This document shows positions 9,001 to 59,329 of a stretch of 64,000 nucleotides of DNA, piece by piece. Position 1 is the first letter of the stretch, and every line of letters starts with the position of its first letter. This stretch comes from a virus. The notes under the pieces are model-generated. The model was not told the DNA's origin and ran no database searches. It worked only from the letters and a program-made list of their open reading frames with translations. The translations under genes and the position numbers were made by a program. The DNA is taken from IMG/VR virus record IMGVR_UViG_3300028423_000586, positions 4,943 through 68,942 of that record. One strand, given 5' to 3'.

Positions 9001-12000
9001 CAATGATTTTAATGAATGGGTATTCTCTCCACCTTTAGCTACAGCAGCAGTAATAGCCGATACATCTGCTTCTTGGCTAGATAGTAATTTAGTAAGCTCA
9101 GTTACACCTGAATCAATAACAGGGTCATTAATAAGTTGTTCGTATTCATACAAGCTCTTAGCTAACGTTTGCTTATCAATGTCGATACCCATACCTTGAG
9201 CCACACCTAGTTTAAAGGTGACGTAACTAGCATTAGTGTTATCGCTAGGGTCAATACGGCTAGGTTCCATTGCAGTCAAGTAACGATGTAGTTTAGATGT
9301 TTGATAGTTAATATCAGAACCAATAGCAGATAAACGAAGTTGTTTACCAAAACGATAGTTGTAGAAAAACGGAGCATTAAGATTACCTTCCTGCTTTAGC
9401 ATACGGTTTCTAAATTCTTTGAATGTTCGGATATCTCTACGTACTGTTCGATTCTTACCTACTACTTTAGGAAGTAATCCTTTGATTACTCCTTCTTCTG
9501 ATTTCTCCCCTAAAATCTCAGCAATAACGTCATCACCTAAAGCATCAAAAACAGTGTTCATATTAGCGTCAATATAATGAGGTACGTCTGCATCTTTATT
9601 AGCACCTTCTACAAACTTTTTAGATGCTACCTGACCACCAGAACGTCTTACCTGATTACTAACCTTGCTAGTACGTTTACCAATCTCAGCCTTATGTGGT
9701 TCCTTGGTTACAGAGGTTAATGATTCAATAAACCCATCCAGAGCACCAAACAACTCAAGTGAATCAGTACCAAAACCAGTATCCAATGATTTAAGGTTTA
9801 CTTTTGAACTACGTATTACCGCCTTATCGTTTGTGTAGTTACCGCCTAACTCATTTAGCTGTTGACCTGTGAATGTCTCAGTCTCAATAACATTCATATC
9901 TTCTAAAGCACGATAAATAACACGACCTAAATCCATCTCAATCTTGCTTTGAATATTGATAGGCATATCAGTATTACGTTTAAGACCTACATTCTTAAGT
10001 GCTGTTCGACCTAATGCTTTTACTACTTCTAAGTAAGGAGAACCTGCATTACCTAAAGCACTTAATTGTTGAGATGTAGGAGTAAAGTTACTTGAATCAA
10101 CATTCAACAATGTAGCCATACCGGTATTGCTGATAGAGTTTAACTGAGATGCATTGTTCTCTAGGTACTCCATTGCTGTAATACCTAATGTCTCTAACAA
10201 CTCATCTGAGTATGTACCGTCTTCTCTTGAGAAGTAATCAAAAGGGAATCTATGTTGAAAACCTCTTCGAGCCAAGATTTCAGCAGGGGTCTTGAGATTA
10301 TTAGTAATACTGTCAGCTACTTGAGAACTAAAACTACCTAGTACACTCAATAAAGTATTTTCAGAAGGTAGTAAGTCTCTACCCAACTCTAATGCAACTT
10401 CTTCCGTATTCGTGATATCAATAGAATCAATCAATCCACGTCGGGTATTAGTAAATACCACGTTTACTTGGTTAGTTGATAAGAAATTCTTATCAGCTCC
10501 TTCATACGTTTTGTTCTTTGATTGTGGTTCAGCACCAGTATTCAATTCATCAAGAACACCTGATTGAGAAGGTGCAGAAGTTACATCACCCTCATCATTG
10601 AAAACATAATCACGAGACTCAAGCTCTTCTTTTGCATCCAGAGTAGTAATGTCTTTACGAGAATCTGTCTCTAAGTTGTGGACAGCTAATAGCTCAATAT
10701 CAGTAGCAGACGATGCTGGATTTACTACATTTTCATCTGTTGTTTCCTGTACCGCTTCAGGGGTTGCCTCAGTAGTAGGGGTATCAGTTACTTCAGTAGT
10801 TTCTACATCTGTAGATGCTTCAGTAGTGATTTCTTCATTAACATCTGTTGTATTAGTAGGAGTAGATGCAGTAAGTAGTTCAGGGTTACTAAACCCTGCT
10901 ACTTGGTTATTTAGATTTTGTAATGTCTGTGCAGATAATTGAGCTTCCACACTGATATCATTAACCAACTTGTCAGCATTAGCGTCTACTGTAGCTTGGG
11001 AGCCATCAAGCTTAAGGAAACCTTCTACGGGTACTCTTGTACCTGCCGGAGAAGCCTTAGCCTGTTCTAGAGCATTCTGATAAGCAGTAGCTTTGTTGCT
11101 TAGGTGGTTAGCAAAGTTACCCAACAGCGATAACTGATTCTTAGCTTGTTGAGTACTACCCATGTTAAGCATAGTGCCAATACGTTGCTGATATTGTCTT
11201 AAACCAATAAATCCTTTACCGCCATTCACAATATCATTATGAACAGCATCAGTAGATTTAAGAGTGTCATTCAACTCAGCAGTAAGACGCAACTGATTAG
11301 CCCTTTGAGGACTTACGTTAGGGTTGTTAGAAGCTTGAATAAGCTCTTCGCTAGTTACTTGGTCAGTAGTGATTGCAGCTTCATTTAATAGAGCAGCATC
11401 TTTATCAATACGTGCTTGATTGAAACCGTCAGCATCATTAGCCAATGAACTAGTCTCTGATTCAATATCTAAAATACGAGACTTAATTTCATTAACTTTA
11501 TCAGGACTAGTAGCAATAGCATTAAAGGTATTTTCTACTTGTTGTGAGTAAGTATCACGTACTTTTTCAAGACGAGTCAGTTCCTGTTTCGTCTCTTTTT
11601 GGTTTCGTTTGATTTCTTCACGACTAGTCTCATTAAGACCTTCTTGCTGAGCCATAGCATCTAACTCATCAAGCATCACCTCAGCATTTTCAATACGTGA
11701 GTTAACAATGTTAAGGGTGTTCTTAGCTAATAAGGCTGCATCTTCTTTAGTAGTTTCTAAAGTAGACTCTTGTTTCTGAAGATTAGTAGCATTACGTAAT
11801 ACTTTTGCTAAGTCTGATGCTTTATCGTAACTAGCTTCAGAAACTGATTCACGTACAGTGTCATCCGAAATAATAGAATTATCTAAGTTGACTTCAGCAG
11901 TACCCGTATTTACTTTCTCTGTTACGTTTTGTTTAGTCTCTAAACCCTTACGTAAGTTATTTACTTTTTCTACAGATGTAACACCACCTGCTAAAGCAGC

Positions 12001-13197
12001 ACCAGAACCAAAGCCAAATAAACCTGCTGTGAATATCTCATCACCTGATAAACGTTCAGTATCCTGAAGACCTGCATAAGCTGTTAAGGCTTCTTCAGTG
12101 GATTCAGTAATACCTTCTGCTACAGCACCTGTAGCAGCTCTAGGAACCACGTTTGATACTTGGTTAGGTACTAGTCGAGCACCAGTTGCTAAGAATCGGT
12201 CTGAGTATGTACCTACAATACCTGCTAAAGCTGAGTAAGCTTGAGTAGTTTTACGTTCATCCCCTACTGGAATATCCCCATACTCTTTCTCAAACTCATC
12301 TAAAGCTTGTTGGTAGTTCTGGTTAGCTAAAGCTGTTGTACCTACTGCAATACTTCTAGCAGCAGTCAACATAGCAGGAATAGACTCAACAGTAACTTGA
12401 GCTACAGCTTGTGGGTTAGAGAATAGTGTGTAAAGCCCTTCAGCAGTGAAATCTTTAGCACCTTCTATCAAGTCTTCAATCCCGCTTAAATCATCAGCCT
12501 GTAGTTTCTCAATACCTTGGTTAATAGTACCTATATTGTTATTGAATACGTCAGCAGCTTCATTAAATGCAGTTTCAGTCTTAGCAGTGTTAACCAACTC
12601 TTCGCCAGAACTAAAAACATCATTAAATTCTTTGAGGCGTTCACTATTAGAAAAGAAACGGTCTAGTATCTCTTTTTTAGGTTCCATAGCCACTGAAGGG
12701 GTAGTTGCTTCTCTACCTGAATCGGCTAGCAAAGCAGAAGCATATTGAGCATATGGTTGGTCATCTACATTACGTTGACGTTCCCAAGGCTGTAGTAAAG
12801 CTTGCTCTTCAGGAGTGTATTCAACATCCTGTCCTTCAGAAGCTAGTTTTTCTTTCTCTTGAATAGAACGGTAGGTAACCAAGTCTTGAGCAGTAAAATC
12901 ACCACGACTGACATCAAACTCATTTAACGCAGTTGGTATAGCAGATAGGATATTACCTACTTGCTGTAAAGCCTTACTACCTAAAGAGATACCAATGTTA
13001 GTTGCTGCTCCTAACGGGTTCTCCAACTCACTATCAGACACAATAGCATCAGGACTTGTACTACGGTCACGGTCAATAGAACTGATAGCATTTAGCCGTT
13101 CCTGTTGAGAACGGCTAGTTGATAGTAGTTGGTTTTTGTAATCTTGGGTTGCTTGCTCTAACGCAATAGCTGTAGAAGACTTAGGGTCTATTGCCAT
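3013..13197 (-). CDS. Virion-encapsidated RNA polymerase (N4 gp50-like)
   Basis: 3394 aa; motif A EIDGITNGP, motif B RKLTKNPVTVTVYAAG, motif C NVFDA; no cysteine seen by eye; HELVH zincin motif in the C-terminal part. Confidence 0.97.
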   Translation of the reverse strand: MAIDPKSSTAIALEQATQDYKNQLLSTSRSQQERLNAISSIDRDRSTSPDAIVSDSELENPLGAATNIGISLGSKALQQVGNILSAIPTALNEFDVSRGDFTAQDLVTYRSIQEKEKLASEGQDVEYTPEEQALLQPWERQRNVDDQPYAQYASALLADSGREATTPSVAMEPKKEILDRFFSNSERLKEFNDVFSSGEELVNTAKTETAFNEAADVFNNNIGTINQGIEKLQADDLSGIEDLIEGAKDFTAEGLYTLFSNPQAVAQVTVESIPAMLTAARSIAVGTTALANQNYQQALDEFEKEYGDIPVGDERKTTQAYSALAGIVGTYSDRFLATGARLVPNQVSNVVPRAATGAVAEGITESTEEALTAYAGLQDTERLSGDEIFTAGLFGFGSGAALAGGVTSVEKVNNLRKGLETKQNVTEKVNTGTAEVNLDNSIISDDTVRESVSEASYDKASDLAKVLRNATNLQKQESTLETTKEDAALLAKNTLNIVNSRIENAEVMLDELDAMAQQEGLNETSREEIKRNQKETKQELTRLEKVRDTYSQQVENTFNAIATSPDKVNEIKSRILDIESETSSLANDADGFNQARIDKDAALLNEAAITTDQVTSEELIQASNNPNVSPQRANQLRLTAELNDTLKSTDAVHNDIVNGGKGFIGLRQYQQRIGTMLNMGSTQQAKNQLSLLGNFANHLSNKATAYQNALEQAKASPAGTRVPVEGFLKLDGSQATVDANADKLVNDISVEAQLSAQTLQNLNNQVAGFSNPELLTASTPTNTTDVNEEITTEASTDVETTEVTDTPTTEATPEAVQETTDENVVNPASSATDIELLAVHNLETDSRKDITTLDAKEELESRDYVFNDEGDVTSAPSQSGVLDELNTGAEPQSKNKTYEGADKNFLSTNQVNVVFTNTRRGLIDSIDITNTEEVALELGRDLLPSENTLLSVLGSFSSQVADSITNNLKTPAEILARRGFQHRFPFDYFSREDGTYSDELLETLGITAMEYLENNASQLNSISNTGMATLLNVDSSNFTPTSQQLSALGNAGSPYLEVVKALGRTALKNVGLKRNTDMPINIQSKIEMDLGRVIYRALEDMNVIETETFTGQQLNELGGNYTNDKAVIRSSKVNLKSLDTGFGTDSLELFGALDGFIESLTSVTKEPHKAEIGKRTSKVSNQVRRSGGQVASKKFVEGANKDADVPHYIDANMNTVFDALGDDVIAEILGEKSEEGVIKGLLPKVVGKNRTVRRDIRTFKEFRNRMLKQEGNLNAPFFYNYRFGKQLRLSAIGSDINYQTSKLHRYLTAMEPSRIDPSDNTNASYVTFKLGVAQGMGIDIDKQTLAKSLYEYEQLINDPVIDSGVTELTKLLSSQEADVSAITAAVAKGGENTHSLKSLVGLAELRLANGKPFDTTVTYEIDGITNGPFNAHIQMGLQVVNGKVTDDSIQRMAQGGLFLDGTQSYTDWISNPSNWDIYQTTAATIGQYEQELLNPNIINDEVTLLSKQRYPVLKKYVGEIVSVDEDTGDLISVTSKGRKLTKNPVTVTVYAAGEASISNKIAESIRSNILEDLQAAVESNNTQKLNEIANDIIFLTGDNSITSMSPSDFEFTPNMVKTMNKTVRETLGNMVNKAIRENFETQIENTDLVTESSNVIFFMFKAMYDKAVNDRIAELRNSGVLSSYEYLSEQQLNEVKKELIETMPVYRSYYGDVNNGIQTANFAETNQVPDEVKSLFTIGDTMKGFSLTPSYLPTYTAPAASTMAMLNIANGDATTMARATQYSTKNIGLNVFDARIAPINSVVESAFSLNRSAYEAVAEHSILETVNERFAASYKAFSNTELDSNDPSVIQLKHYAVAYFQGGKVVKGKATLFKGNSSTTFNDEQVVSMIDENMLNKYLSIVAAKNELALENNNEAKTLLKKELTFNQFEALGTGVRFNNGEVKKGVELTPEMITEAIVNSEQKLLTATQQLPETENIDTTLASIERNVSESLSTGYVNPDAETPIADFFKGRSEASVTDLRDLVSTLEIPTTTRVIYDALLANIANTGGVTVRVLRGTDNHDVVTNQGKENTELLHGYASTTDNVIYLNAEDKINTGFTTETLFHELVHIATSDALFNGLEQLRTGVDLGLTKAQLKAVRDIQKLYDDAVKRNTLPANALENIYEFVAWGLTNNQAKSELSKSKTRLRALANSVTRLVKQMLGMTDADNNALIQLLDKAFTLSTYGKRVDNSITGNPKTLPHRAEDSIKRLTLSQVYDGVARRNTVQITNEHDTHLRTVLDEAVSKVIDPALLVTTDANQGLATEDALLLNRLDPSVNDTLTVLSGLNFRMSEQERFVYGMYSHVIDSALNDFGWNTREIRRMYDHAEKNMTWEDFVDDSSVLNTPEDIEQSKALAQSRYDAVFNNAGTGVNDYLRNFLALAVTNESFRERLANLETPRLLSKSLKGDTVRETIDNVMTAIINWLNDFAITRSHESTVLGKLDTLSKNIRYKELAEKSKLAKDAERIGGFASNTLNRINNWGKERIDKALEASQKAVKERAVLNASVRLAGVLLSEERANTFAIGLDRVQSLRAQGREGFISALWSDLKGTNSGNQRIHQLLAIKNKMVDQENVHIKQHTARMVRDEFIEPLEEKDSFAMTKVLLKADVSSLLENGYDLTTIQNLIADKELLNKEITKLTAQLRQDVPQDLYYYFTNMGKSLGRYMARGEATVDGMVFNTDAIVSLHGTGKTNPNVSTAVRNRVDSLVTLQALKMTQFSDKRRVSRVMAKEAARTDNRNGAYFLMALHNRNKKDALTKNFVNAEHNFQKGYIREIVDPYRSVQVAPLEAESELKLQGYVRINRPLNADKNDPVKKPMFLYVSEYGGEISYLQSILSTANKAAKGFSVIDRFAQAGNALPNARKPEVIAQIARSKEASMGSLFTNKPKTVFNPLVPTTNKAGQVVDYRYVMSESMKDSLLRKDNRVDEVFGAMAAGITLKVNSEEINNRLIDALHEQYIEDRDSNNLDRYVLVEANSKDKQLRETWNLLPEEAKRKAKNKFGIEGVYVRNDLVNVAFGYRKWSLTDLWNPDSEYPALIKDMAVKMASSVYGNKIANYVARGERGLQEFVKEVKDIVVIKSVIVMLGNAISNTMQLPVLHGVSPIKTITDQITAFTAASEYRKNSEEIFDLQTKIDAGLGTPAMENRLVRLNQDQQRNPVKPLMDAGMLQTIIEDSDAQDSIYSYKHSLASKVSSVTSMLPDTLVEGVKQITISQGSITYDALSQATQLSDFAARFALFNHLTKNEGYTQENALTAITEAFINYDLPPHKAMQYMNDVGITWFFKYFIRIQKVILNAFRDKPARILAFLAAQNLMAIDVDSPLNSFAPSVDLGAKIGLMDGISMGTNAHPIAQFY

Positions 13198-36641: not shown

Positions 36642-36965
36642 ATGTCTAAAGAATCAATCTGGAACTCAAACGAAACTGAAGCAACTAACCAAACTGACGT
36701 TTACCTAAACGTTGAACTTCAAGTTGCTGAAGATGTAACAATTCGTATGCCTCTTAACTGTCCTGTCAGTGAAGACATTAAAGGTATGTCAGCTAACCAA
36801 CGTAAGCTAATGGAATTGCTGTTGGCTAAAGTTGATGAAGCTATGGAGCTTCCTGAAGGTGATGAGCGTAATGCAGCATTGACAATCAATGTGCCTGTTA
36901 AATGTACGCTATTCAAACGTGGCAGCAAAGAAGCTGATACAACTGGTTGGGCAGCTAACCTGTAA
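36642..36965 (+). CDS. N4 gp2-like ssDNA-binding activator of RNAP II
   Basis: VYLNVE..IRMPLNCPV..NQRKLMELLL resembles the N4 gp2 pattern (FWLNIG..ISLPTGIPL..QNDLLEQL); second early transcription unit. Confidence 0.65.
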   Translation: MSKESIWNSNETEATNQTDVYLNVELQVAEDVTIRMPLNCPVSEDIKGMSANQRKLMELLLAKVDEAMELPEGDERNAALTINVPVKCTLFKRGSKEADTTGWAANL

Positions 36966-38032: not shown

Positions 38033-38062
38033 ATCTATTCCCCAAACAAAGAGACTAATATT

Positions 38063-38505: not shown

Positions 38506-38562
38506 TCTTTGTTTATTACCTTGTCTTCTCCCTTCGATTCCCTAACCAAAGAGATAGTTATT

Positions 38563-39376: not shown

Positions 39377-39397
39377 AGTACTAAGGATTCCCCAATT

Positions 39398-40285
39398 ATG
39401 AACTTAGAGAAATTAGCTAAAGACCATGAATTAGATTTATTACGTCATGGCTTTGATGAATTAACTAAAGCTCCATTAAAGTACTTAAACGAAATAGACT
39501 TAGATAGCGTAAACCTAGAAGATGAAGAACGTAGTGAACTATTTGATTGGTTACATCAAGATAAGCTAGATGAAATTGTATATAAGCTAGTAGCTAGGGT
39601 AGTTATGGATGGTTCTGTAACTGCTCAAGCACTAGTAGGTATGATGTTTAATAAAATTAGATACCTTAAATCTAGGCAACATATCCTTGATATTATGCTT
39701 AATGCTGTATCTAGTAATAAATTCATAGAAGTTAAACGAGTAGGTATGTACCTAATGTTTACTTGTAAGAATAAACTACCTAAAGAAATAGCTGATAAGC
39801 GTAAGAAACTAAGTTATGTATTACCTAGTATTGATATTCCTCTGAAAGTAACTAATAACTCAATGATTGGTTATAGGACTATCAACCAAAGTATTATTTG
39901 TGGTGGTGTACTTAAACATCATGATAAACCTTTAAACCTTAATCATATCAACCGAGTTAATAGAACTCCTTACCGATTAGAAAACCGTATTCAATTCCTA
40001 GTTAAACCTCAATTTGATTCTGAACCAAAGATGAAAGATGACGGTAATATGGAAACAGAAAAAGATGTATCTAAACGCTTTGAAACATGGACTCAGTTAA
40101 TGACTGAAATCCCAGAAAAAGCAAAGATTATGGTAGAGAACGGTAACCGTTTCTATATACACCACAGATTCGATAATGGAGGTAGATGCTATACCAAAGC
40201 ATTTCATTTTAATTATCAGGGCATAGCTTATTGTAAGGCTATGGTACAAGCGTATAACCGCGAAATAGTAGAACCGGAGTTTTAA
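39398..40285 (+). CDS. RNA polymerase II subunit 1 (N4 gp15-like)
   Basis: NRFYIHHRFDNGGRCY...NYQG (variant of the DxRGR motif of T7-type RNAPs). Confidence 0.88.
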   Translation: MNLEKLAKDHELDLLRHGFDELTKAPLKYLNEIDLDSVNLEDEERSELFDWLHQDKLDEIVYKLVARVVMDGSVTAQALVGMMFNKIRYLKSRQHILDIMLNAVSSNKFIEVKRVGMYLMFTCKNKLPKEIADKRKKLSYVLPSIDIPLKVTNNSMIGYRTINQSIICGGVLKHHDKPLNLNHINRVNRTPYRLENRIQFLVKPQFDSEPKMKDDGNMETEKDVSKRFETWTQLMTEIPEKAKIMVENGNRFYIHHRFDNGGRCYTKAFHFNYQGIAYCKAMVQAYNREIVEPEF

Positions 40286-41065: not shown

Positions 41066-41094
41066 TTGATTCCCCAAATCAAAGGAAACCTACT

Positions 41095-42357
41095 ATGAAA
41101 CCATTATTCACTGCGGCTCAATGGAGCTTAATTGATTTAGCAAACCAATTTGGTTTAGACAAGAAACCATTTGAAGTACGTCTTCAGTGGGGTAGAGAGC
41201 AATTAGTTAAAATACGTAAATGCGCAGGTATGTTAGACCTAAGTAAGCATTTCGATGACATTATTAAGAAAGCTGATGAGCCTGAACTATTTACTGCTGC
41301 TCTACTTAATGTATGGGATATAGTTAATGGTCGTCCTTCAGGTCACTTTATTGAATTGGATGCTGCTGCTAGTGGTCCTCAGTTATTATCCGTAGCTACT
41401 CGTTGTATACGTGGTATGACTATTACAGGTGCTATCAGTGATAATGTACCAGACCTATATACAACGATATTTGGTATCATGCGTGAAGAAGTACCTAACA
41501 TGGCTGTAATCAAACGAACCAACGTTAAGAAAGCAACAGTACCTTATGTATATGGCTCTGGTAAAGCACCTAAAACGGTATTTGGTGACTTCCATAATCT
41601 ATTCACAGAAGCTTATTACAAAGCAGTACCAAGAGCTGAAGTAGTTAAGAACCTGTTAATTAATGCATGGGACTCTAATGCTACTTACTATGAATGGGAA
41701 TTACCTGATGGTCATACAGCTCATATCAAAGTAATCCGTGATGAAAGTGAAGTCTTCTACTACAACGGTAAACGTTTTACCTATGTATATGAAGACTTAG
41801 GTGCTAAGAAGAAAGGTGAAGAAGGAACCAAGGCATTAGCTGCTAGGGTTACTCACTCATTCGATGCTTACGTATTACGTGAAACTGATGCTCGTACTGA
41901 CTATAACCTTCATCAAATGTTAGTAGCTAAAGAAGCATTAGAAGCTTACTTAGCAGGTGAAACTCAAATAGGAACCATGACTGAAGTAAAACGATTAGAA
42001 CGTCTATCTAAGAAATTTAAGATGGTATCTATTCGTGGTGCCGAAGAAATCAAACGTGGTTACTTAGATGGTATCGACAAGATGTACGCTAGGGAACTTC
42101 TAGAAATTGTTAATATCACTCTAAATGAAGATGAACCTGCACAGCTTAAGCTTATTCATGATGGCTATGGTGCTCTACCTAACCATGTGAATACCTGTAA
42201 GACTCACTACAACAACCTACTAGCTGAAACCTATATCGGTGAATGGTTACCCAAAGTAGTAGAGCAACTAACCGGTATTAATATGCTTAAAGATATGGAA
42301 CCGCCTAAAGCAGAAATCATCCGTAAACTACGTAATAGCAAATATGCTATTTCATAA
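41095..42357 (+). CDS. RNA polymerase II subunit 2 (N4 gp16-like)
   Basis: Motif A LDAAASGPQ, motif B R..VKKATVPYVYGS, THSFDA, motif C IHDGY. Confidence 0.92.
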   Translation: MKPLFTAAQWSLIDLANQFGLDKKPFEVRLQWGREQLVKIRKCAGMLDLSKHFDDIIKKADEPELFTAALLNVWDIVNGRPSGHFIELDAAASGPQLLSVATRCIRGMTITGAISDNVPDLYTTIFGIMREEVPNMAVIKRTNVKKATVPYVYGSGKAPKTVFGDFHNLFTEAYYKAVPRAEVVKNLLINAWDSNATYYEWELPDGHTAHIKVIRDESEVFYYNGKRFTYVYEDLGAKKKGEEGTKALAARVTHSFDAYVLRETDARTDYNLHQMLVAKEALEAYLAGETQIGTMTEVKRLERLSKKFKMVSIRGAEEIKRGYLDGIDKMYARELLEIVNITLNEDEPAQLKLIHDGYGALPNHVNTCKTHYNNLLAETYIGEWLPKVVEQLTGINMLKDMEPPKAEIIRKLRNSKYAIS

Positions 42358-43369: not shown

Positions 43370-43381
43370 AAGGAATAACCA

Positions 43382-43774
43382 ATGGATAACGTAACTGATT
43401 TTCCTTTATTCAATACTCTTTTTGCTACTCACAACATTAACCAAGTAGAGATAGTCACTACAAGACACGGTAACCCTAAAGTAGTATTCACTTCTGACTT
43501 TGATGAAAATGCTTGGTCTACTACACACCATATCCCTGTTACAACAGCACTTGATATTCTTAATGATTCCTTAAAACAGATATCAAGTCTCTACGCAGTT
43601 CAAGACACGTTAGGTGATTTGATGGTTAAGCACTATGGTAATAAAGCAGGTGTTGCTCGTTACTTAGGGCTAAATAGAACCACCGTAAGAACGGCTTGTG
43701 ATATAGGTGATGCAGGTCTCCTTGTGGTAAATAATGTTATTTACCGTTCTACCCAAAAACGTGTAAAAGGTTAG
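43382..43774 (+). CDS. Protein with C-terminal NinH-like HTH
   Basis: TLGDLMVKHYGNKAGVARYLGLNRTTVR resembles lambda NinH. Confidence 0.6.
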   Translation: MDNVTDFPLFNTLFATHNINQVEIVTTRHGNPKVVFTSDFDENAWSTTHHIPVTTALDILNDSLKQISSLYAVQDTLGDLMVKHYGNKAGVARYLGLNRTTVRTACDIGDAGLLVVNNVIYRSTQKRVKG

Positions 43775-43844
43775 TTTTCACCTCGTTTTTGTGGTTGTTT
43801 TGACAGCAGATGTAAAGTAACCCCATCTAAAATAAACTTTTCTG

Positions 43845-43873
43845 TTGCAATAGATTTAGATTTAATCTAACTT
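43845..43873 (+). promoter_or_regulatory. sigma70-type promoter of the sRNA/tRNA cluster
   Basis: TTGCAA-17 bp-TAACTT with AT-rich upstream sequence. Confidence 0.65.
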
Positions 43874-43880
43874 AATTAAA

Positions 43881-43950
43881 GTACTTTGATTGGGGAATCA
43901 AGGTAAGGGTATTAAGGTATCCTTGAATACTCCTTAACGGGAGTATTCTA
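43881..43950 (+). ncRNA. Candidate antisense small RNA / structured tRNA leader
   Basis: 10-bp hairpin with GGGG loop (43882-43905) plus two further hairpins; complementary to several RBS regions. Confidence 0.55.
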
Positions 43951-43954
43951 AACT

Positions 43955-44030
43955 GGTTACTTAGCTCAGTTGGTAGAGCAGGAGCGTCATGAGCTTCAGG
44001 TCATTGGTTCAAATCCAGTAGTAACCACCA
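43955..44030 (+). tRNA. tRNA with CAT anticodon (Met or Ile2), atypical anticodon loop
   Basis: Full cloverleaf, GGTTACT/AGTAACC acceptor stem, encoded CCA. Confidence 0.9.
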
Positions 44031-44031
44031 T

Positions 44032-44108
44032 AGCAGATTAGCCAAGTGGTCTAAGGCATCGGACTTTGATTCCGACATTCATAGGTTCGAATCCTATATC
44101 TGCTTCCA
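44032..44108 (+). tRNA. tRNA-Gln (TTG)
   Basis: AGCAGAT/ATCTGCT acceptor stem, loop CTTTGAT, TTCGAAT, CCA. Confidence 0.92.
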
Positions 44109-44116
44109 AATTTAAT

Positions 44117-44194
44117 GAGGGGGTAGCTCCAATTGGTTAGAGCGACGGATTCCAAATCCGTAGGTTCTTGGTTCGAATCCAAGTCCCTTTGCCA
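44117..44194 (+). tRNA. tRNA-Trp (CCA)
   Basis: ACGGA-TTCCAAA-TCCGT anticodon arm, G73, CCA; G-U-rich acceptor stem. Confidence 0.9.
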
Positions 44195-44196
44195 AA

Positions 44197-45102: not shown

Positions 45103-45127
45103 TATTCCCCAACAAAGTGAGAAATTT

Positions 45128-47128
45128 ATGAACTTCCAGAAATTCCGTGATGCTGTGTCAGCTCAGATTAACCGTATGGTTAACCAAAGTCCTGTACTAT
45201 TAGTAGTTTCTTTGGATAAAGAAGCTTTGTATTCTACCTACCTATCGGCTTTTCCTGAAGGTACTAACCCGCTATTTCGTGAACGTACAGAACATGACTG
45301 CAATTGCTGTAAAGGTTTTATCCGTAAGCTAGGTAACGTAGTTTCTGTAATTGATGGTGAGCTAGTATCTATCTGGGATATTGATATCACTGATGTAGAC
45401 CCTGCATATGCCACGGTTGCTAAAGCATTAAGTAAGTTTGTTAAGTCTCATAAAGTAGACAATGTATTACGTCTTGAGATCGTTACTGTAGGCGTTAAAA
45501 AGAACTTTGACTTACAAACTAATGACCAGTATGACCATTTCTTCCAAGAGATGCCATGTGGTTATGTAATTGATGTTCCTAATCATCCGCTTAACCTAGT
45601 AACCAACCATAAAACAGCATTGTCTAACTCTATGCAGATAGACAAAACCGCTATTGAGTTGGTACTAGAACTAGCTGAATCTGGTTCTCTTTACCGTGGT
45701 GAAGAAAAGATTCCTATGCTTAAAAAGTGGCTAGAGCTTAAAGGTCTTTACGATAATGTAGTACCTTCTTTGATTGATGCTTGGTTATTCGAAACCGCAC
45801 ACTTCTTAGGTGATTTCTCTAACCTACGTGGAAGTTCAATCGGTACTCTTGTAGAAGATATCTTTAAGGGAGTAGATATCAATGAAGCTGTATCTAAATA
45901 CGAGCGTATTGTAGCTCCTGAGAACTATAAACGTTCTTCTGCTCCTGTTACCCAAGCAATGATTAATAACGCTATGGAGACAGTTAATAAGCTTGGTATC
46001 GAAGAATCTCTAAAACGCCGTTTTGCTACATCAGATGACTTAACCATCAACAATGTACTATTTGCTGACTACTCAGTTAAACCTTCTATGGGTGTGTTTG
46101 ACGCTATTAAACCTACTGCTACTAACGTAGTACCTAACTTGGATAAGTTAGAGGAAGTACCTTTGGAAGTCTTCCTAAGCAAAATTCTACCTAAAGCAGA
46201 AAAGCTTGAAGTAATGGTATCTAATAACCAAGTGAATAACTTTGTTAGTCTAGTGGCTCCTGTAAATCCTGATGCCTCTAACATTCTTAAATGGGGTAAC
46301 AACTTCTCTTGGTCTTACAACGGCGATGTTACTGACTCGCTAATGAAAGAACGTGTGAAAGCAGCAGGGGGTAAAGTCGATGGTGACTTACGATTCTCTA
46401 TCCAGTGGAATGAAAATTTCAATGACTGTGATGTGGATTTGGATGCCCATGCTATTACACCTGACGCTCATATCTATTACATGAATGAGCATGATTCTCA
46501 TGGTGGTATGCTTGACATAGATATCCGTGTACCTCGACGTAAAGTAGCAGTAGAAAATATTACTTGGGCTGATAAAGATAAGCTGCCTGATGGTAAATAC
46601 CAGTTTTATGTGAATAACTATTCTGGTTTTTGTCAAGGCGGGTTTAAAGCTGAAATCTCATTCTTAGGTGAAACCTATGAGTATGTATACTCTAAGTCTA
46701 TCAACCACGGTAAGAATGTACCTGTATCTGAAGTCACTATCCTGAATGGCAAAGCAACCTTTAAGCACTTGATTGATTCCTCAACTTCTTCTCTTGAAGT
46801 TTGGGGTGTAAAAACTAATGAATTTATACCTGTTGAAACAGTATTAAATTCACCTAACCATTGGGACGGTGAAAAGACTGGTCTTAAGCATGTATTCTTT
46901 ATGCTGAAAGGTTGTGTTAACCCTAACCCTGTTCGTGGTTTATACAATGAGTTCCTATCGAACGACTTACACAAACATCGTAAAGTGTTCGAGCTACTAG
47001 GTACTAGACTACGTGCTGAGCACTCAGATAAACAACTAAGCGGTGTAGGATTCTCTACAGGTAAGTCAAATGAGCTTATCTGTAAAGTAACCGGCTCTTA
47101 CTCCCGTACAATCAAAATCATCTTTTAA
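45128..47128 (+). CDS. Large conserved phage protein with C-terminal YfaP/DUF2135-like domain
   Basis: HDCNCCK metal motif; W..DVDLDAH...GGMLDIDI...VENITW. Confidence 0.7.
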   Translation: MNFQKFRDAVSAQINRMVNQSPVLLVVSLDKEALYSTYLSAFPEGTNPLFRERTEHDCNCCKGFIRKLGNVVSVIDGELVSIWDIDITDVDPAYATVAKALSKFVKSHKVDNVLRLEIVTVGVKKNFDLQTNDQYDHFFQEMPCGYVIDVPNHPLNLVTNHKTALSNSMQIDKTAIELVLELAESGSLYRGEEKIPMLKKWLELKGLYDNVVPSLIDAWLFETAHFLGDFSNLRGSSIGTLVEDIFKGVDINEAVSKYERIVAPENYKRSSAPVTQAMINNAMETVNKLGIEESLKRRFATSDDLTINNVLFADYSVKPSMGVFDAIKPTATNVVPNLDKLEEVPLEVFLSKILPKAEKLEVMVSNNQVNNFVSLVAPVNPDASNILKWGNNFSWSYNGDVTDSLMKERVKAAGGKVDGDLRFSIQWNENFNDCDVDLDAHAITPDAHIYYMNEHDSHGGMLDIDIRVPRRKVAVENITWADKDKLPDGKYQFYVNNYSGFCQGGFKAEISFLGETYEYVYSKSINHGKNVPVSEVTILNGKATFKHLIDSSTSSLEVWGVKTNEFIPVETVLNSPNHWDGEKTGLKHVFFMLKGCVNPNPVRGLYNEFLSNDLHKHRKVFELLGTRLRAEHSDKQLSGVGFSTGKSNELICKVTGSYSRTIKIIF

Positions 47129-49219: not shown

Positions 49220-49264
49220 GCTATTACCCTTTTCCTTTGGTTTTTCATAATCGAGGATATCCCC

Positions 49265-49645
49265 ATGTCAAGTGTACAACCAAACGATGACTTAGCCTAT
49301 AGAGAGGCTTGTGACCTTGCTTTAGCAATAGAAAGGGACTTCTACCCTGAACCTCCTAAGCTTGAGCTGCTTGATACTACTGATGGTGTCTTGACCCAGA
49401 TAGACAACATGTATGCAGGTATTCGTAGTAAATACGAAAAGCAAGTAAAATTAACTAAAACATACGAAATGCTCATTCGTCGCTTTCTTACTCAGTCCGA
49501 ATTCCATTATTCTATCTTCCCTGAAATTCGCATTCATTGGAGTGAAGCTTTGATGCGAGAAGCATTAGAGACAGTTCCTGATGATGTTCGAGAAACATTA
49601 TTCCCTGACCTCAATAAGATGGAGGAGTTCAAATGCAGGTATTAA
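49265..49645 (+). CDS. Hypothetical protein
   Basis: SD GAGGA. Confidence 0.7.
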   Translation: MSSVQPNDDLAYREACDLALAIERDFYPEPPKLELLDTTDGVLTQIDNMYAGIRSKYEKQVKLTKTYEMLIRRFLTQSEFHYSIFPEIRIHWSEALMREALETVPDDVRETLFPDLNKMEEFKCRY

Positions 49646-52850: not shown

Positions 52851-52880
52851 GGTATTAACTAACTAATTAAGGATTCCCCA

Positions 52881-55403
52881 ATGGAAGTTACTCACGTAAA
52901 AGACCATGTAACCAATGCATCAATTGGTTATTCAAAAGTAGAAGAAATGGGTATTGATAACAGTCCTGAATTCTTCCACATTCTTTCTTCTTCACTTTAT
53001 CAATACCAAACTCTGGCTATGGTACGTGAAGTACTCTCAAACGCAGCAGACGCTCATACAGATGCAGGTAACCCACAACCAATTGAAGTGACGGTTACAT
53101 CTGAATCCGTTAGTTTTAGGGACTTTGGCTCAGGTATTCTTCCTGAACTAATTAAACCTGTTTACGGCACTTATGGTAGTGGTACTAAACGCAATAACGA
53201 AAATGCCATTGGTGGTTTTGGTTTGGGCTGTAAATCACCTTTTGCTTATACGGATAACTTTGAAGTAACTTCATGTTACCAAGGAACCAAGACTATCTAC
53301 CGTATGTCTAAAGCATCTAAAGCGGGTAATGGTAAACCTTCTATTATTACTATGCTTTCTGTGCCTTGTGGTGAAGAGACAGGTATTACAGTTACTATCC
53401 CTATTGAAGAGAAAGACCAGTACAGTATTACTCAGATGATTAAAGGGTATGCTTACTACGGTGAATTTGAAGTAGTGCTTAACGGTGAACTATGTGAAAC
53501 CATGTGTATGAGTATGGAGCCTTATTCATATAAATTTGCTGAATTTCGTAGCTCATACCTATCACCTCTAAGTAACATCTCAAATAAAAGTATGCTAGTA
53601 AGATATGCAAACATCTTATACCCATTACCTGAGCCGACTTCCGATAGTCCTAGTCAGTATCGTGTTCTATTTGACCGTCTTAAAACATTTTTGAATAAAT
53701 TTAATGAACAGCCTTATGTGTATGCTAATTTCATTGTTCAAGCACCGGCTAATTCATTATCAGTACAACCAAGCCGAGAAGGTCTTACTGAGACTGAATA
53801 TACCTATGCAGGTTTAATAGATACTTTACAAAGAGTTTACGATGACCTGAATGCTAAGGTAAATAAAGCGGTAAAAGCTAAACTACCTGTAATTCTAAAG
53901 AAAGCATCTGAATTAGAATTAGATGATTTAGGTAACTGTTCGTGGTTTAGTGAACTAGTGTATGTATGTGGTTCAGCCGAAGATACATATCATCCAGTAG
54001 CATTAATAGATAATTATGTTCAGAACATACCTCTAACTTGTTCTGAAACCAATGTTATCTATAAAGAAGTATTGAAGCGTACTCAACAGGTGATGGGATT
54101 AAGTAAAGATTTTACTTATATGTTACAAAAAGAGTTTAACTCTATTAGTGACCAACAAACTAGATTTAAAACTGATTTAGTTTCCTCACATTACTATGAT
54201 GCTTCAGGGTTTTTAGTTAAATGGTATCGTAAGTTACTTACACCATTAATTAATCCTAAACGTCTGTATGTATACAGCCACGGATTTATTACCCGACAAG
54301 GGTTATGTAATAAGAAGGTCGATGATGTATATACGATATCTGACTTCCATCTCAAACACCCACATTACTTAACAGTATTTCGTAACAGACCCATAATCCT
54401 AACAACTAACTTGCGTAAAACATCTGAGCGTGTAAGTAGTTACAATGCACATTATACAGATATACCTGACCTACACGGTGCTTTGGTTTACCACGTACCT
54501 AATGGTAAGAAAAATGTTGAGATTGCTCGTTATGCTCTAGAGCAAAGCGGTTATGCAGTATACGATTTTACTGTTCAGCTACCTTGGGAAAAGAACTACA
54601 ACCTAAGTACTAAGAAATCAGTATCATCAACTACTGCATTACCCAGAGTAAGCAGTAATGTTGCTAAAGACTCAATCCCTGCTTTAAGTTCCATCATAAC
54701 TGATTCAGGTAACATCAATACGTTACTGTCTTGCCAGCCTGATGCAGTAAGGGTATCTAAACCAATAAGTAATTTACTCATCTACATTAATAAAAACACA
54801 TCTACTACTACAGTAGATATGTATAGTAATGATTTTATTAAAGAAGTAGCTAAGTACTATGGTGACCAAATTGGTATTGTTGGTACTGTAACCCAGAAAA
54901 ATAAATGGGATGCAATAGGTAATAAGAGTCTCTATTTATTAATGATGGAGTTAGTTGTTACTAAATTCAAAGCAGTTAAGAAGGAGTATATTAAATATAC
55001 CTCCACTAGTGATGATTGTATGAGTAAAGTGTGTAATTCACTAAGTAATAATGCTTGGAGAACTAAACGATTTGTAGAAGCTCTACAACAGAATACTGAC
55101 TTACTACCTTATAAAAAGTACCCAAAAAGTAAAGAACTCACAGAGTTTTTATATCTGTACAATGCTGTATTGGATGAGGTTGCCTATCGCCACCATGGGG
55201 ATAAAGCAGTGGTTTATGACACGCTTAAAGAGCTTATCCCTGACCCTGTTCCTTCGGTAGCAATGACTAAGTTCATTAAACAAGTAAGTAACTACCCTGC
55301 TTTAGCTATGATAAACCTAGATGAAGCAGAAAGTCTTAATGAACCTGAAGCTGCTAGTTTAGCTAAACATGTGATTTCACAAATAAGGAAAATCAAAGTA
55401 TGA
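52881..55403 (+). CDS. rIIA: rIIA-like protein
   Basis: GHKL ATPase motifs REVLSNAADAH, RDFGSGI, GGFGLGCKSPFAY. Confidence 0.9.
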   Translation: MEVTHVKDHVTNASIGYSKVEEMGIDNSPEFFHILSSSLYQYQTLAMVREVLSNAADAHTDAGNPQPIEVTVTSESVSFRDFGSGILPELIKPVYGTYGSGTKRNNENAIGGFGLGCKSPFAYTDNFEVTSCYQGTKTIYRMSKASKAGNGKPSIITMLSVPCGEETGITVTIPIEEKDQYSITQMIKGYAYYGEFEVVLNGELCETMCMSMEPYSYKFAEFRSSYLSPLSNISNKSMLVRYANILYPLPEPTSDSPSQYRVLFDRLKTFLNKFNEQPYVYANFIVQAPANSLSVQPSREGLTETEYTYAGLIDTLQRVYDDLNAKVNKAVKAKLPVILKKASELELDDLGNCSWFSELVYVCGSAEDTYHPVALIDNYVQNIPLTCSETNVIYKEVLKRTQQVMGLSKDFTYMLQKEFNSISDQQTRFKTDLVSSHYYDASGFLVKWYRKLLTPLINPKRLYVYSHGFITRQGLCNKKVDDVYTISDFHLKHPHYLTVFRNRPIILTTNLRKTSERVSSYNAHYTDIPDLHGALVYHVPNGKKNVEIARYALEQSGYAVYDFTVQLPWEKNYNLSTKKSVSSTTALPRVSSNVAKDSIPALSSIITDSGNINTLLSCQPDAVRVSKPISNLLIYINKNTSTTTVDMYSNDFIKEVAKYYGDQIGIVGTVTQKNKWDAIGNKSLYLLMMELVVTKFKAVKKEYIKYTSTSDDCMSKVCNSLSNNAWRTKRFVEALQQNTDLLPYKKYPKSKELTEFLYLYNAVLDEVAYRHHGDKAVVYDTLKELIPDPVPSVAMTKFIKQVSNYPALAMINLDEAESLNEPEAASLAKHVISQIRKIKV

Positions 55404-58468: not shown

Positions 58469-59329
58469 ATGGCAAGTAAAATTCAATCTCAAGAGAATGC
58501 TATTAAGTTTGTTGATAAAGTACTTAGTAACTACATGGCATCTCAAGGTAAAGTACGTCCTCACTTTATCATCTCAGGACCAAGTGGTACTGGTAAATCC
58601 TTTATCCTTGAAAAGCTTTGCCGTAAACATGCAATGTCTTTTCTAAACATCAATGCTGCTCAGCTAACCCGTGAAGGTATTGCCGGTAATTCACTATCTA
58701 AAGCTCTAGAACCACTGAAGAAGCTTCAAGGTAAACCTGTAGTCGTCTTATGTGATGAGTTCGATAAACTCTTCCAAGGTGTGAATGGAGCAACAGGTGA
58801 TGAACGTGCAGGAGTTCAATCAGAAATCCTTCATATTGTTTCTTCAGGGGTAGCTCAGGTTATTGCTGATTACGGTCATTACCATGAGGTAAACACCAGT
58901 AATGTATTATTCATTTTTGCCGGTGCTTTCCAAGGTCAGACTAACCTAAGCCCTGAAAAGCTACTAAGCATGGGTATGTACCCTGAATTATTAGGTCGTG
59001 TGAACCTGCATATCGAACTGCCTAGTATTGAGTGTGATGAACTAATTAAAGCAATGAAGAAAGATGACTTGCTTCAGCATTACGCTAATATCCACAAGCT
59101 ATCTAAAGAGAAGCTTGAAGAAGCTACAGATTCTATTGCAGAGCAGATTCGTAAACAATTCCCTACCAATGTTATTGGTTATCGTTTAATTACCCGACTT
59201 ATTCACCAATACTTCTTATTTGATGGTGTATTCCCTGAATACAAAATGGAAGAAGGTGACGACTTACTTGGGGATGACTTAGATAAGCTCCAAGAAGAGT
59301 TAGGATTCGAAACACAAATCGGAGATTAA
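58469..59329 (+). CDS. AAA+ ATPase, ClpX/HslU-like
   Basis: GPSGTGKS, LCDEFDKL, GVQSEIL, LFIFAGAF, GMYPELLGRV. Confidence 0.85.
   Translation: MASKIQSQENAIKFVDKVLSNYMASQGKVRPHFIISGPSGTGKSFILEKLCRKHAMSFLNINAAQLTREGIAGNSLSKALEPLKKLQGKPVVVLCDEFDKLFQGVNGATGDERAGVQSEILHIVSSGVAQVIADYGHYHEVNTSNVLFIFAGAFQGQTNLSPEKLLSMGMYPELLGRVNLHIELPSIECDELIKAMKKDDLLQHYANIHKLSKEKLEEATDSIAEQIRKQFPTNVIGYRLITRLIHQYFLFDGVFPEYKMEEGDDLLGDDLDKLQEELGFETQIGD

Follow-up and report, generated by a model that had tools for sequence, protein, structure and literature searches.

A conserved tRNA-operon leader complementary to the translation starts of selected early and middle genes in an N4-like phage: a possible antisense RNA

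N4-like phages (Schitoviridae) are the textbook example of temporal control through three successive RNA polymerases, and to our knowledge all the switches known in them act on transcription. We know of no earlier multi-target trans-antisense RNA that a lytic phage directs against its own genes, and in the literature on such phage RNAs we found only the putative sRNAs of LUZ7, which have no assigned role. In T4, the RegA protein reportedly acts late in infection on the start regions of many early mRNAs, that of rIIB among them, and represses them one by one; the tRNA cluster of the same phage is said to yield the stable species 1 and 2 RNAs, for which we know of no targets. In E. coli, 3'ETS-leuZ, a processing spacer of a tRNA operon, reportedly persists, base-pairs with RNAs and sponges sRNAs. 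The C4 RNA of phages P1 and P7 is about 77 nt long, has three stem-loops, is excised by the RNase P of the host from a longer transcript and, through its loops, base-pairs with an mRNA in such a way that a ribosome-binding site is hidden (PMC5320573). The promoters of N4 are described here after a review, according to which the minimal promoter of RNAP II extends from -7 to +2 and is AT-rich, this polymerase binds to DNA in single-stranded form, the template strand being the one it reads, and the transcripts that it initiates overlap one another across the leftmost half of the genome (PMC4496689). The early promoters of the N4 vRNAP, at the left end, consist of a 5-7-bp stem and a 3-nt loop whose middle base is a purine, on the template strand (PMC4496689, PMC6027278); in LUZ7 the middle promoters form hairpins in which a 3-4-nt loop tops a stem of no fewer than 6 bp (PMC9163698).

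Here we analysed a 64,000-nt window of the genome of an uncultured N4-like phage (positions 4,943 to 68,942 of the IMG/VR record IMGVR_UViG_3300028423_000586; coordinates below are those of the window). In this window a 74-nt leader with three hairpins directly abuts the 5' end of a tRNA, where cleavage by RNase P would be expected from tRNA biology; the Shine-Dalgarno sequences (SDs) of selected cistrons have beside them an element whose reverse complement is the first hairpin of this leader (GUACUUUGAUUGGGGAAUC...).

The plus-strand RNA structure of the tRNA-operon leader is conserved

The elements of the tRNA operon discussed here are the following:

43845..43873, + strand: sigma70-like promoter candidate (TTGCAA at 43845-43850, 17-nt spacer, TAACTT at 43868-43873)
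43881..43954, + strand: structured leader, a candidate RNA of 74 nt with three hairpins, 5' of tRNA-Met
43955..44194, + strand: tRNA-Met(CAT), tRNA-Gln(TTG) and tRNA-Trp(CCA), identified by ARAGORN (Rfam scores 63.6, 67.5 and 57 bits)

The predicted transcript start falls at about 43880-43881, and GTACTTTGATTGGGGAATCAAGGTA begins at 43881. The two hexamers match the sigma70 consensus at 4/6 and 3/6 positions, that is 7/12, and a promoter scan with a threshold of 9/12 therefore did not list the candidate. A search found no other TAACTT-type promoters, and the idea of a family of such promoters was rejected, since only one of the three TTG-N20-TAACTT matches, that of the tRNA leader, is intergenic and precedes an RNA gene.

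Hairpin 1 (43882-43905) has a 10-bp stem, including one U-G pair, and a GGGG loop, and it holds the anti-motif; hairpin 2 (43906-43923) and hairpin 3 (43925-43948) follow, with a 6-nt tail up to the 5' end of tRNA-Met. The promoter-like element, the sequence of the predicted transcript from 43881, the 10-bp stem and the GGGG loop had all been pointed out in a sequence-only reading of this DNA, and they are as it described them. The region 43876-43954 folds with a minimum free energy of -29.1 kcal/mol (z = -5.43), which none of 200 shuffles equalled in stability, compared with only -18.4 kcal/mol for the - strand of the leader. No Rfam family matched the leader, and neither ARAGORN nor Rfam recognised it as a tRNA or a tRNA-like cloverleaf, the three at 43955-44194 being the only tRNAs found. 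An intrinsic terminator was ruled out, all the hairpins being without a downstream U-run. When contigs of the relatives X1, X5, X6 and X7 were compared with 41000-45200, the indels listed included one within the leader: a low-depth contig of X5 lacks one nucleotide at 43929. The sequencing runs listed for 37001-47000 included no RNA run, which speaks neither for nor against a transcript. Just upstream of the leader, 43382..43774 encodes a 130-aa protein that is a candidate for a helix-turn-helix of NinH/Fis type.

Conservation was assessed in one relative, L007, an IMG/VR contig whose PF26675 protein and RNAP1 are 71% and 77% identical in amino acids to those of the window. This relative retains the inverted copy of the motif, the three hairpins and the TTGNNN-17-TAACTT geometry: its promoter-like region reads TTGATT, 17 nt, TAACTT, 7 nt, GTACTTTG, with a diverged spacer sequence, and the positions of both hexamers and their distance to GTAC are the same. 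Hairpin 1 is identical at 24 of 25 nt, hairpin 3 has been rewritten with its pairing retained, and the homologous leader folds at -30.9 kcal/mol (z -5.13). Over the 22 consensus pairs of the leader, the two phages differ by five one-sided changes that leave the bases paired and by one two-sided change, with no pair broken; the only substitution in hairpin 1, A to G, and the one in hairpin 2 are paired only as U-G on the + strand. The + strand RNA structure of the leader is conserved between the window and L007. Since the pairing-preserving changes hold for the + strand only and the + strand folds more strongly, it is the RNA hairpin displaying the anti-motif that appears to be under selection, and not a mere DNA word. 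The seed and the target cores are identical in L007, so there is no loop/target covariation between the two phages.

A nine-nucleotide motif at the starts of selected cistrons

The two RNAP II subunit genes and the sites complementary to the leader are listed by position, with the net energy gain of cofolding (ddG, in kcal/mol) and, for some sites, the rank among 54 translation start regions:

39398..40285: RNAP II small subunit (RNAP1) gene
41095..42357: RNAP II large subunit (RNAP2) gene
38037..38051, + strand: site before a 42-aa ORF, ATTCCCCAAACAAAG; ATG 38063; ddG -12.4
38536..38551, + strand: site before a 130-aa ORF, GATTCCCTAACCAAAG; ATG 38563; ddG -13.2; a C-to-T change would form a G-U pair
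39386..39396, + strand: RNAP1 site, GATTCCCCAAT between the SD AAGGA and ATG 39398; ddG -8.7, rank 7/54
41066..41084, + strand: RNAP2 site, TTGATTCCCCAAATCAAAG, adjoining the SD AAGGAA; ATG 41095; ddG -13.7, rank 2/54
45104..45118, + strand: site before a 666-aa PF26675/phrog_1735 protein, ATTCCCCAA-CAAAGT; ATG 45128; ddG -12.4
49259..49267, + strand: weak, degenerate site of a 126-aa ORF, AGGAT-ATCCCC-ATG (ATG 49265); ddG -9.9, rank 6/54
52872..52882, + strand: rIIA site, AAGG-ATTCCCCA-ATG (ATG 52881), 32 nt downstream of a terminator at 52820-52841; ddG -13.8, rank 1/54

The motif core, ATTCCCCAA, has six exact copies in the 68,942-bp genome against about 0.4 expected, at 38037, 39387, 41069, 45104 and 52873 on the + strand and at 43890 on the - strand; a copy with one mismatch lies at 38537, ahead of the 130-aa ORF. 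These five forward and one reverse occurrences compare with one and one for the backwards control word over the whole genome, with first-order Markov expectations of 0.21 and 0.16 per strand, and with a mean of 0.37 and a maximum of 4 in 300 dinucleotide shuffles counted on both strands. When one mismatch was allowed, 21 matches were obtained versus 11.08 +/- 3.27 expected, a number reached in 0/100 shuffles. All five + strand copies are intergenic and stand immediately 5' of start codons, at most 26 nt from them, in line with the enrichment at start codons that the sequence-only reading predicts. The genes with an exact sense copy are those of both RNAP II subunits, rIIA, the PF26675 protein and the 42-aa ORF.

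The sites are of two classes. At class I sites the motif starts 26, 26, 26 and 24 nt 5' of the ATGs at 38063, 38563 (the one-mismatch copy), 41095 and 45128, respectively, while at class II sites (RNAP1, ATG 39398; rIIA, ATG 52881) it occupies the spacer between SD and ATG. In 4/4 class II cases a conserved SD, 6-10 nt from the ATG, lies 5' of the motif, suggesting that class II sites are read within the mRNA and not as DNA alone. The inverted copy in hairpin 1 exceeds the 9-mer, as it matches the extended class I consensus GATTCCCCAATCAAAG, for which about 0 occurrences are expected; it is placed at the extreme 5' end of the conserved structured RNA next to the tRNAs, and no leftward start codon was found at the class I distance from it.

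Within the gene block from 32.5 to 64 kb, TTCCCCA is the commonest 7-mer across intergenic gaps, being present in 5 of the 17 gaps of at least 18 nt, and all five of its occurrences in the block are intergenic. Three early-promoter candidates apart, no other word is widely repeated between the genes of this block; these candidates are separate from the motif, at about 35727, 36574 and 39110. The motif is absent from the two genes that separate those of the RNAP II subunits, and the roughly 15 kb of replication genes downstream of rIIA hold no copy. Its core is A/T at 5/9 positions and includes four consecutive C, in a genome with 62% A+T.

L007 retains the motif at RNAP1, RNAP2, PF26675 and rIIA, that is at 4/4 large orthologous genes, with diverged flanks. 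Its RNAP2 site matches the leader perfectly over 16 nt, its rIIA site reads GAGG-ATTCCCC-ATG, and its PF26675 site is GTTCCCCAAT-AAAGT, with an A-to-G change that would form a G-U pair. It has no counterpart of the 38037 site, and at 38537 its orthologous leader retains CCAAAGAGATA without the core; the absence of these two sites counts against an antisense model. The leaders at 38037 and 38537 are near-duplicates of each other. In the contigs of the relatives X1, X6 and X7 (three runs of three studies), homology begins exactly at the RNAP2 motif site. Both internal core variants, CCCT in the window and GTTCCCC in L007, are compatible with G-U pairing; together with the stem changes, which pair in the + strand RNA only, they bear out the earlier remark that several deviations from the motif are G-U compatible.

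Cofolding ranked 54 translation start regions by the net gain after opening of the leader. The seven motif-bearing regions took ranks 1-7 of 54, at -13.8 to -8.7 kcal/mol against a median of -1.45, a ranking that is not independent of the motif count. Contiguous complementarity reaches 9-12 nt, and up to 18 nt with one bulge, at six start regions; at the RNAP2 site, hairpin 1 can pair along 12+6 nt interrupted by one bulge, and there, as in the 16-nt match of L007, the complementarity goes beyond the core. The weak site that had been added at 49259 (ATCCCCATG) is present in degenerate form, without an exact core, and its membership in the motif set is uncertain. The target regions are unstructured, all start regions other than 41066 folding at 0 to -2 kcal/mol. 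Pairing of the motif with its own SD was ruled out, with at most 4 bp possible and folds of 0 to -2.7 kcal/mol. By these energies, antisense pairing is predicted to be thermodynamically feasible; since the seed lies within a 10-bp stem and a 4-nt loop is small for a kissing start, it would need opening of the stem or a chaperone.

Searches of other genomes returned few relatives of this arrangement. In Logan assemblies, relatives of the PF26675 protein had 95, 71, 70, 66, 62, 56, 53 and 52% identity. The hairpin 1 15-mer was found in 81 IMG/VR stretches, of which only two, both from the L007 contig, were related, and the hairpin-2 pattern was found in that contig only; a 22-nt leader pattern gave one chance match in GTDB genomes, in a coding region of a Bacteroidetes MAG, and searches with RNAP2 and with the RNAP1 alignment returned nothing or the L007 contig alone. 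A metagenome scan yielded L134 (62%), which is not syntenic and has neither the motif nor a tRNA. In a k-mer screen of 46 IMG/VR loci, the upstream words were of SD type only, except in the window and L007; two unrelated motifs also appeared, one in L045 and one in L013, L046 and L051. Among 75 regions upstream of tRNA clusters in 32 loci, a non-SD complement to five start regions was found in the window alone, the matches of L008 (five genes) and of L038, L048 and L194 (four genes) being due to SD or ATG words; this screen missed the L007 leader because an ORF lies between the leader and the next tRNA. A covariance model of the leader (R1), run on 87 sources (1.59 Mb), retrieved the window and L007 only, the next best match having 17 bits (E 1.4). 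With no analogous leader and target pair in the other loci and sources screened, an antisense model has no support at the level of a family.

A proposed antisense RNA and the rival explanations

The explanation that we consider best for the pair of motif and anti-motif, and that we put forward tentatively, is that the leader is an antisense RNA silencing selected early and middle cistrons. The tRNA operon would be transcribed with its 74-nt, three-hairpin leader from a start at about 43881, directed by the conserved TTGNNN-17-TAACTT element, and a cut by RNase P at 43954/43955, the 5' end of tRNA-Met, would free the leader as a small RNA with hairpins at both ends. Its proposed targets are both RNAP II subunits, rIIA, the PF26675 protein and the small early ORFs: pairing at class I sites would hide the 5' half of the SD, at class II sites (RNAP1 and rIIA) the spacer between SD and ATG, in both cases preventing 30S binding and possibly forming a substrate for RNase III. 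As the tRNA operon transcript built up, the chosen early and middle proteins would be turned off cistron by cistron. That the leader is expressed late from a sigma70 promoter is a guess, given hexamers that match at 7/12 positions and the absence of other TAACTT-type promoters.

All the testable sequence-level predictions of the sequence-only reading, which had proposed such a switch, came out in its favour; what it overlooked is the main rival, namely that ATTCCCCAA is the middle promoter of the phage's heterodimeric RNAP II, read on a single-stranded template and producing overlapping rightward transcripts. This rival arises because the N4 minimal promoter is also about 9 nt long (-7 to +2), and we regard it as unlikely, yet to be taken seriously. 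On this view the inverted copy would either drive leftward transcription or serve, as an RNA copy, some separate purpose; however, it has no leftward gene and lies inside an RNA structure whose changes keep pairing on the + strand only. The distribution of the motif suits a promoter well, with a 9-nt core, unconserved upstream flanks, five of six copies in sense orientation and all of them at 38-53 kb of the window, in the early/middle block, where, early-promoter candidates apart, no further repeated intergenic word could serve as a middle promoter; yet the roughly 15 kb of replication genes past rIIA carry no copy. At 38537, 52873 and 49259 the site stands at the head of a gene block that follows a terminator or a change of strand, the homology of the relatives' contigs starts right at the motif, as it would at the edge of a module, and the fixed distance and the CAAAG of class I sites could reflect an initially transcribed sequence. 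At class II sites, by contrast, transcription starting at the motif or close to it would yield a leader of 0-4 nt and remove the conserved SD, and N4 promoters are AT-rich whereas the core here has four C. The N4-like word TTAAYTAA was weighed as another candidate for the middle promoter, but most of its occurrences in the window are intragenic; the N4 record has no promoter annotation. The 9-mer could also be the RNAP II promoter and the leader an RNA mimic, a decoy that titrates this phage polymerase of single-subunit type and ends middle transcription when expression of the tRNA operon becomes high, a combination that would explain at once why the motif is distributed like a promoter and why the + strand RNA hairpin is under selection. 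The template strand at every motif site reads 5'-TTGGGGAAT-3', and the hairpin 1 RNA shows the same letters in the same polarity; 6S RNA, which titrates the sigma70 holoenzyme, is the model for such a decoy, and we give this version very little credence.

Other rivals dispense with RNAP II. The motif, as a GATT-CCCC-AATC quasi-palindrome, could be a double-stranded DNA site recognised in either orientation by a phage regulator acting at position +10 of the tRNA promoter as well as at a number of gene starts, the candidate being the 130-aa product of 43382..43774. Orientation-blind recognition of the palindromic GATT and AATC arms would account for the inverted copy, which lies just 3' of a promoter, as roadblock operators typically do; but it is the asymmetric centre that is conserved and not the arms (the outer half-sites are retained in only two of six copies), every gene-proximal copy has its C on the sense strand, and neither the G-U-type tolerance nor the + strand-only conservation of the hairpin is predicted. 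The NinH (25.6 bits, cut-off 29.8) and HTH_8 matches of the candidate regulator, which favour this reading, are below the Pfam thresholds, and we think it improbable. Improbable, too, is a role of the motif as an RNA operator, at which a protein that represses or enhances translation would bind AUUCCCCAA beside the SD, with a logic like that of T4 RegA, or with a poly(C)-binding protein of the host or ribosomal protein S1 in that role. The cistron-specific sites, which adjoin the SD on either side and are missing from the two genes that stand between those of the RNAP II subunits, would suit such a protein. The genome has no homologue of RegA (PF01818; no matches at E <= 1 in a six-frame search) or CsrA (PF02599), and with the leader unrelated or a competitor only, the conserved 16-18-nt complementary copy in a conserved RNA hairpin is left unexplained. 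Finally, the repeats might be non-regulatory, either recombination or module-boundary sequences or leader cassettes copied along with the genes they precede, with the inverted copy as a by-product of such an exchange. A mosaic junction that coincides with the motif in three runs from three studies, the similarity of the 38037 and 38537 leaders and the different site content of the window and L007 agree with this, but the core is retained at four orthologous genes with diverged flanks and 71-77% protein identity, and the inverted copy lies within a selected RNA structure; we rate this the least probable of the explanations.

Significance and comparison with known systems

If the antisense explanation holds, a tRNA-linked sRNA that blocks translation of the RNAP II subunits, rIIA and others would add a post-transcriptional layer to the transcriptional control of these phages. 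If the motif is instead the RNAP II promoter, this would also be useful, middle promoters being described as very hard to define outside N4 (PMC9163698). Under either reading, the pair of motif and anti-motif is compact, mutable and tractable in E. coli.

Compared with the promoters of N4-like phages, the motif resembles that of N4 RNAP II in being short (about 9 nt), oriented and present in several copies 5' of genes of the early/middle half, and differs from it in its C-rich core, in the two sites between SD and ATG and in the inverted copy inside an RNA hairpin. Like the hairpin promoters, two of the copies, those at RNAP2 and in the leader, can fold into a stem of 6-10 bp with a 4-5-nt loop. 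Measured against the N4 vRNAP promoters, however, the motif loops are of 4-5 nt and only the 41066 and 43882 copies (2/6) form a stem; moreover, the two motif hairpins expose complementary loops for the same direction of transcription, and their stems are AT-rich and not GC-rich.

Among regulators of translation, the RegA network likewise takes in a set of early cistrons that includes an rII gene, with a protein as effector where an RNA is proposed here. The T4 species 1 and 2 RNAs are comparable as extra stable RNAs of a phage tRNA cluster, and 3'ETS-leuZ as a by-product of tRNA processing that base-pairs, although it is a sponge of sRNAs and not a repressor of mRNAs. C4 RNA (RF01695), also phage-encoded, agrees in length, three-stem-loop architecture, maturation by RNase P and mode of action with what is proposed for the leader. 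The two are without homology in sequence or structure, and the RF01695 covariance model gave no match at E <= 10 in the genome or in 43700-44700. C4 is the 3' product of an RNase P cut, whereas the RNA proposed here would be the 5' leader of a true tRNA; the seeds of C4 lie in open loops, that of the leader in a stem and tetraloop; and C4 acts on one operon (icd-ant) in the immunity of a temperate phage, whereas the proposed targets of the leader are six or more cistrons scattered over the genome of a lytic N4-like phage.

A nine-base word at gene starts of an N4-like phage

Judged from its genes, the virus behind this IMG/VR record (68,942 bp, with terminal repeats, of which the window is bases 4943-68942) is an N4-like podovirus.

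Genes of the phage
3013..13197, minus strand: ORF of 3,394 aa, the length of vRNAP (the N4-type early RNA polymerase)
39398..40285, plus strand: N4-like RNA polymerase family match, RNAP1, small RNAP II subunit (phrog_2166, 1.9e-41)
41095..42357, plus strand: N4-like RNA polymerase family match, RNAP2, large RNAP II subunit (phrog_2051, 7.1e-80)
45128..47128, plus strand: phrog_1735/PF26675 protein, 666 aa
52881..55403, plus strand: rIIA homologue

No close cultured relative was found by megablast, which returned tRNA-sized matches only, and named phage proteins were at best ~45% identical to those of the window; near-identical DNA came mostly from marine or aquatic metagenome runs.

The genome has six copies of the motif ATTCCCCAA, five on the plus strand and one on the minus strand, against an expectation of ~0.2 per strand (Markov model) or 0.37 for both strands together (300 dinucleotide shuffles). 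The sequence-only reading had placed it at translation starts, and on re-reading the sequence every one of its coordinates was correct, with all five plus-strand copies lying in short intergenic gaps immediately before start codons. In the early/middle gene block, which has 17 intergenic gaps, TTCCCCA is the 7-mer that the gaps share most widely, and within the genes of that block it has 0 occurrences. The observation is confirmed, and clearly non-random.

Sites of the motif
38037, plus strand: class I, starting 26 nt before the ATG
38537, plus strand: class I, one mismatch, 26 nt before the ATG
39387, plus strand: class II, before RNAP1, filling the spacer from a good SD (Shine-Dalgarno, AAGGA) to the ATG
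41069, plus strand: class I, 26 nt before the ATG
45104, plus strand: class I, 24 nt before the ATG
52873, plus strand: class II, before rIIA, filling the same spacer
43890-43898, minus strand: inverted sixth copy

At class I sites the motif is followed, after 0-2 nt, by CAAAG leading into the SD. Read with its flanks, the inverted copy complements the extended class I consensus GATTCCCCAATCAAAG; the chance expectation for this 16-mer is essentially zero. A one-mismatch likeness to the anti-motif, TTGGGGATT, on the plus strand in the 3' arm of a terminator hairpin (36975-37002, after gene 36642..36965), is probably chance. The motif's first eight letters would also be complementary to a universally conserved 16S rRNA stretch immediately 3' of the site of probe EUB338; since this stretch is base-paired inside the 30S subunit, we treated the match as coincidence.

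Other repeated elements were seen in the same region.

Intergenic elements before early units, CGCTTTGCTC(G/C/T)G followed by a T-run and GG
35724-35740
36571-36590
39107-39125, just ahead of the gene preceding RNAP1

The last of these is placed like N4's third early promoter, likewise before RNAP1 (N4 upstream sequences compared), and two of the three are conserved in the IMG/VR relative L007 (about 770-790 and 3395-3415). These copies, at which a 5-7-bp stem was not evident, are likely vRNAP early promoters. Across 35400-55000, sigma70-like promoter matches are depleted (27 vs 72.8 +/- 9.3 in shuffles) and terminator-like hairpins enriched (22 vs 9.7 +/- 3.4). Near-identical TTAACTAACTAA(T/C)TAAGGA strings follow a terminator-like or T-rich stretch at 52855-52872, before rIIA, and at 58443-58462, before 58469..59329, and would be either three-frame stop codons plus an SD or an AT-rich promoter. 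Among other phage loci found via the PF26675 protein, L045 has its own non-SD word of 14-15 nt before 5-8 genes, and L013, L046 and L051 have the non-SD word ATTTGATTG before 3 genes.

The tRNA-operon leader and its predicted pairing

A 74-nt leader (43881-43954) contains three adjacent hairpins, and the inverted copy makes up the loop and stem of hairpin 1. The hairpins stop six bases short of tRNA-Met, with which a row of three tRNAs begins. The predicted plus-strand RNA fold reaches -29.1 kcal/mol (z = -5.4) and that of the minus strand only -18.4 kcal/mol, because four of the plus-strand pairs are G-U. No U-run stands behind any hairpin, which rules them out as intrinsic terminators, so transcription would continue into the tRNAs. 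The leader matched no Rfam family, nor the model of C4, the antisense RNA of phages P1/P7 (RF01695).

Directly upstream, 43382-43774 encodes a 130-aa protein with sub-threshold matches to NinH (25.6 bits, cut-off 29.8) and, at residues 75-119, to a Fis-type HTH_8, making it a possible DNA-binding regulator. The ~490 bases 3' of the tRNAs (44195-44685) contain no convincing ORF, only frames of 41-42 aa, and gave no Rfam match (43700-44700 searched, E <= 10); they may contain further non-coding RNA.

When the leader was cofolded with the start region (-45..+25) of each of 54 plus-strand genes and the separate folds were subtracted, the best seven of the 54 were the seven motif-bearing regions (-13.8 to -8.7 kcal/mol; median -1.45), although these numbers are a consequence of the motif that the sites share and are no independent evidence. 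A duplex scan slid along the entire genome ranked the same sites top. The target regions alone are predicted to be unstructured, and the modelled energies show the pairing gain covering the cost of opening the 10-bp stem. The start by loop-loop kissing proposed in the sequence-only reading is doubtful, as the GGGG loop has only four bases; pairing would call for breathing of the stem, co-transcriptional contact or a chaperone.

Conservation in relatives

The comparison relies on one relative at a useful distance, the 47.6-kb contig L007 (71% identity for the PF26675 protein, 77% for RNAP1). There the motif is kept before RNAP1, RNAP2, PF26675 and rIIA while adjacent intergenic bases have changed and spacers carry indels; L007 has one additional site of its own and no counterparts of sites 38037 and 38537. 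Its RNAP2 site and its leader share 16 contiguous complementary bases. Upstream of that leader TTGNNN, 17 nt, TAACTT, 7 nt and GTAC are kept around a diverged spacer. Hairpin 1 is the same in 24 of 25 positions, the sole change turning U-A into U-G, which pairs in the plus-strand RNA only; the stem of hairpin 2 is kept, and hairpin 3 is rewritten, still as a hairpin. Across 22 consensus pairs, five changes are one-sided, one is two-sided and none breaks a pair, and the predicted fold of the L007 leader reaches -30.9 kcal/mol (z = -5.1).

In contigs of closer relatives (runs X1, X6 and X7, from three studies) homology starts at 41067/41068, the very position of the motif before RNAP2, and another gene stands upstream. 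Read from these alignments, the position is a mosaic junction, and the motif therefore travels with the RNAP2 cistron.

tRNA content is fluid across these sequences. In L007 (region 8452-9117) there follow, after the leader, a 5' fragment that is tRNA-like, an ORF of 119 aa without a Pfam match, a weak tRNA (39.7 bits) and tRNA-Met; in run X6, 325 other letters replace the tRNA-Gln (window 44031-44110), and one X1 contig skips 43980-44162. Among 75 tRNA-cluster upstream regions from 32 other loci, none showed an analogue of the leader/target pair, and a leader covariance model run on 87 sources gave none beyond this clade; by these searches the element is limited to this small clade.

An antisense RNA and its rivals

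Three facts need explaining: an oriented word adjoins the SD of chosen cistrons; its extended complement lies in a plus-strand RNA hairpin itself under selection; and a tRNA operon begins at its 5' end with this hairpin, preceded by a promoter-like element that is conserved. An antisense RNA acting in trans on the motif-bearing cistrons is preferred because it accounts for all three, and it is the single best reading, at somewhat less than an even chance. The leader would be released from the tRNA operon transcript by RNase P as a discrete small RNA and would pair beside the SD of its targets, altering their translation. This suits the class II sites well, since their conserved SD shows the motif being read as mRNA.

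The main rival, which we consider unlikely, is that the motif is an RNAP II (middle) promoter. The parts of PMC4496689 that deal with this enzyme in N4 describe a minimal promoter from -7 to +2, its template strand read as single-stranded DNA, and successive transcripts that overlap one another in the genome's left half. A motif of 9 nt that is oriented, leaves its flanks free and recurs serially before genes fits that description, and an intergenic word screen found no other candidate middle-promoter word. However, the motif core is C-rich where that of N4 is AT-rich; RNAs started at class II sites would have almost no leader and would lack the conserved SD; and the inverted copy has no gene in front of it and is embedded in an RNA structure for which a promoter has no need. 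The boldest reading is a hybrid, with the leader RNA as a mimic of the template-strand promoter that titrates RNAP II; it is very improbable. Other proposals explain part of the pattern only: an operator for an RNA-binding protein (the genome has no RegA or CsrA homologue), a dsDNA regulator site, for which the neighbouring HTH-like 130-aa protein speaks, or a mere recombination boundary.

The antisense interpretation of the sequence-only reading is partly supported. In the literature searched we found no description of a tRNA-leader antisense RNA in N4-like phages (Schitoviridae), the nearest being putative small RNAs of the N4-like phage LUZ7, given no known role in the relevant parts of PMC9163698. 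The class of mechanism is already known, comprising base-pairing RNAs, RNase P maturation and tRNA-precursor by-products. For the putative antisense leader, C4 of P1/P7 is a close functional precedent: the C4 portion of PMC5320573 describes an RNA of ~77 nt with three stem-loops, excised by RNase P, that occludes a ribosome-binding site.
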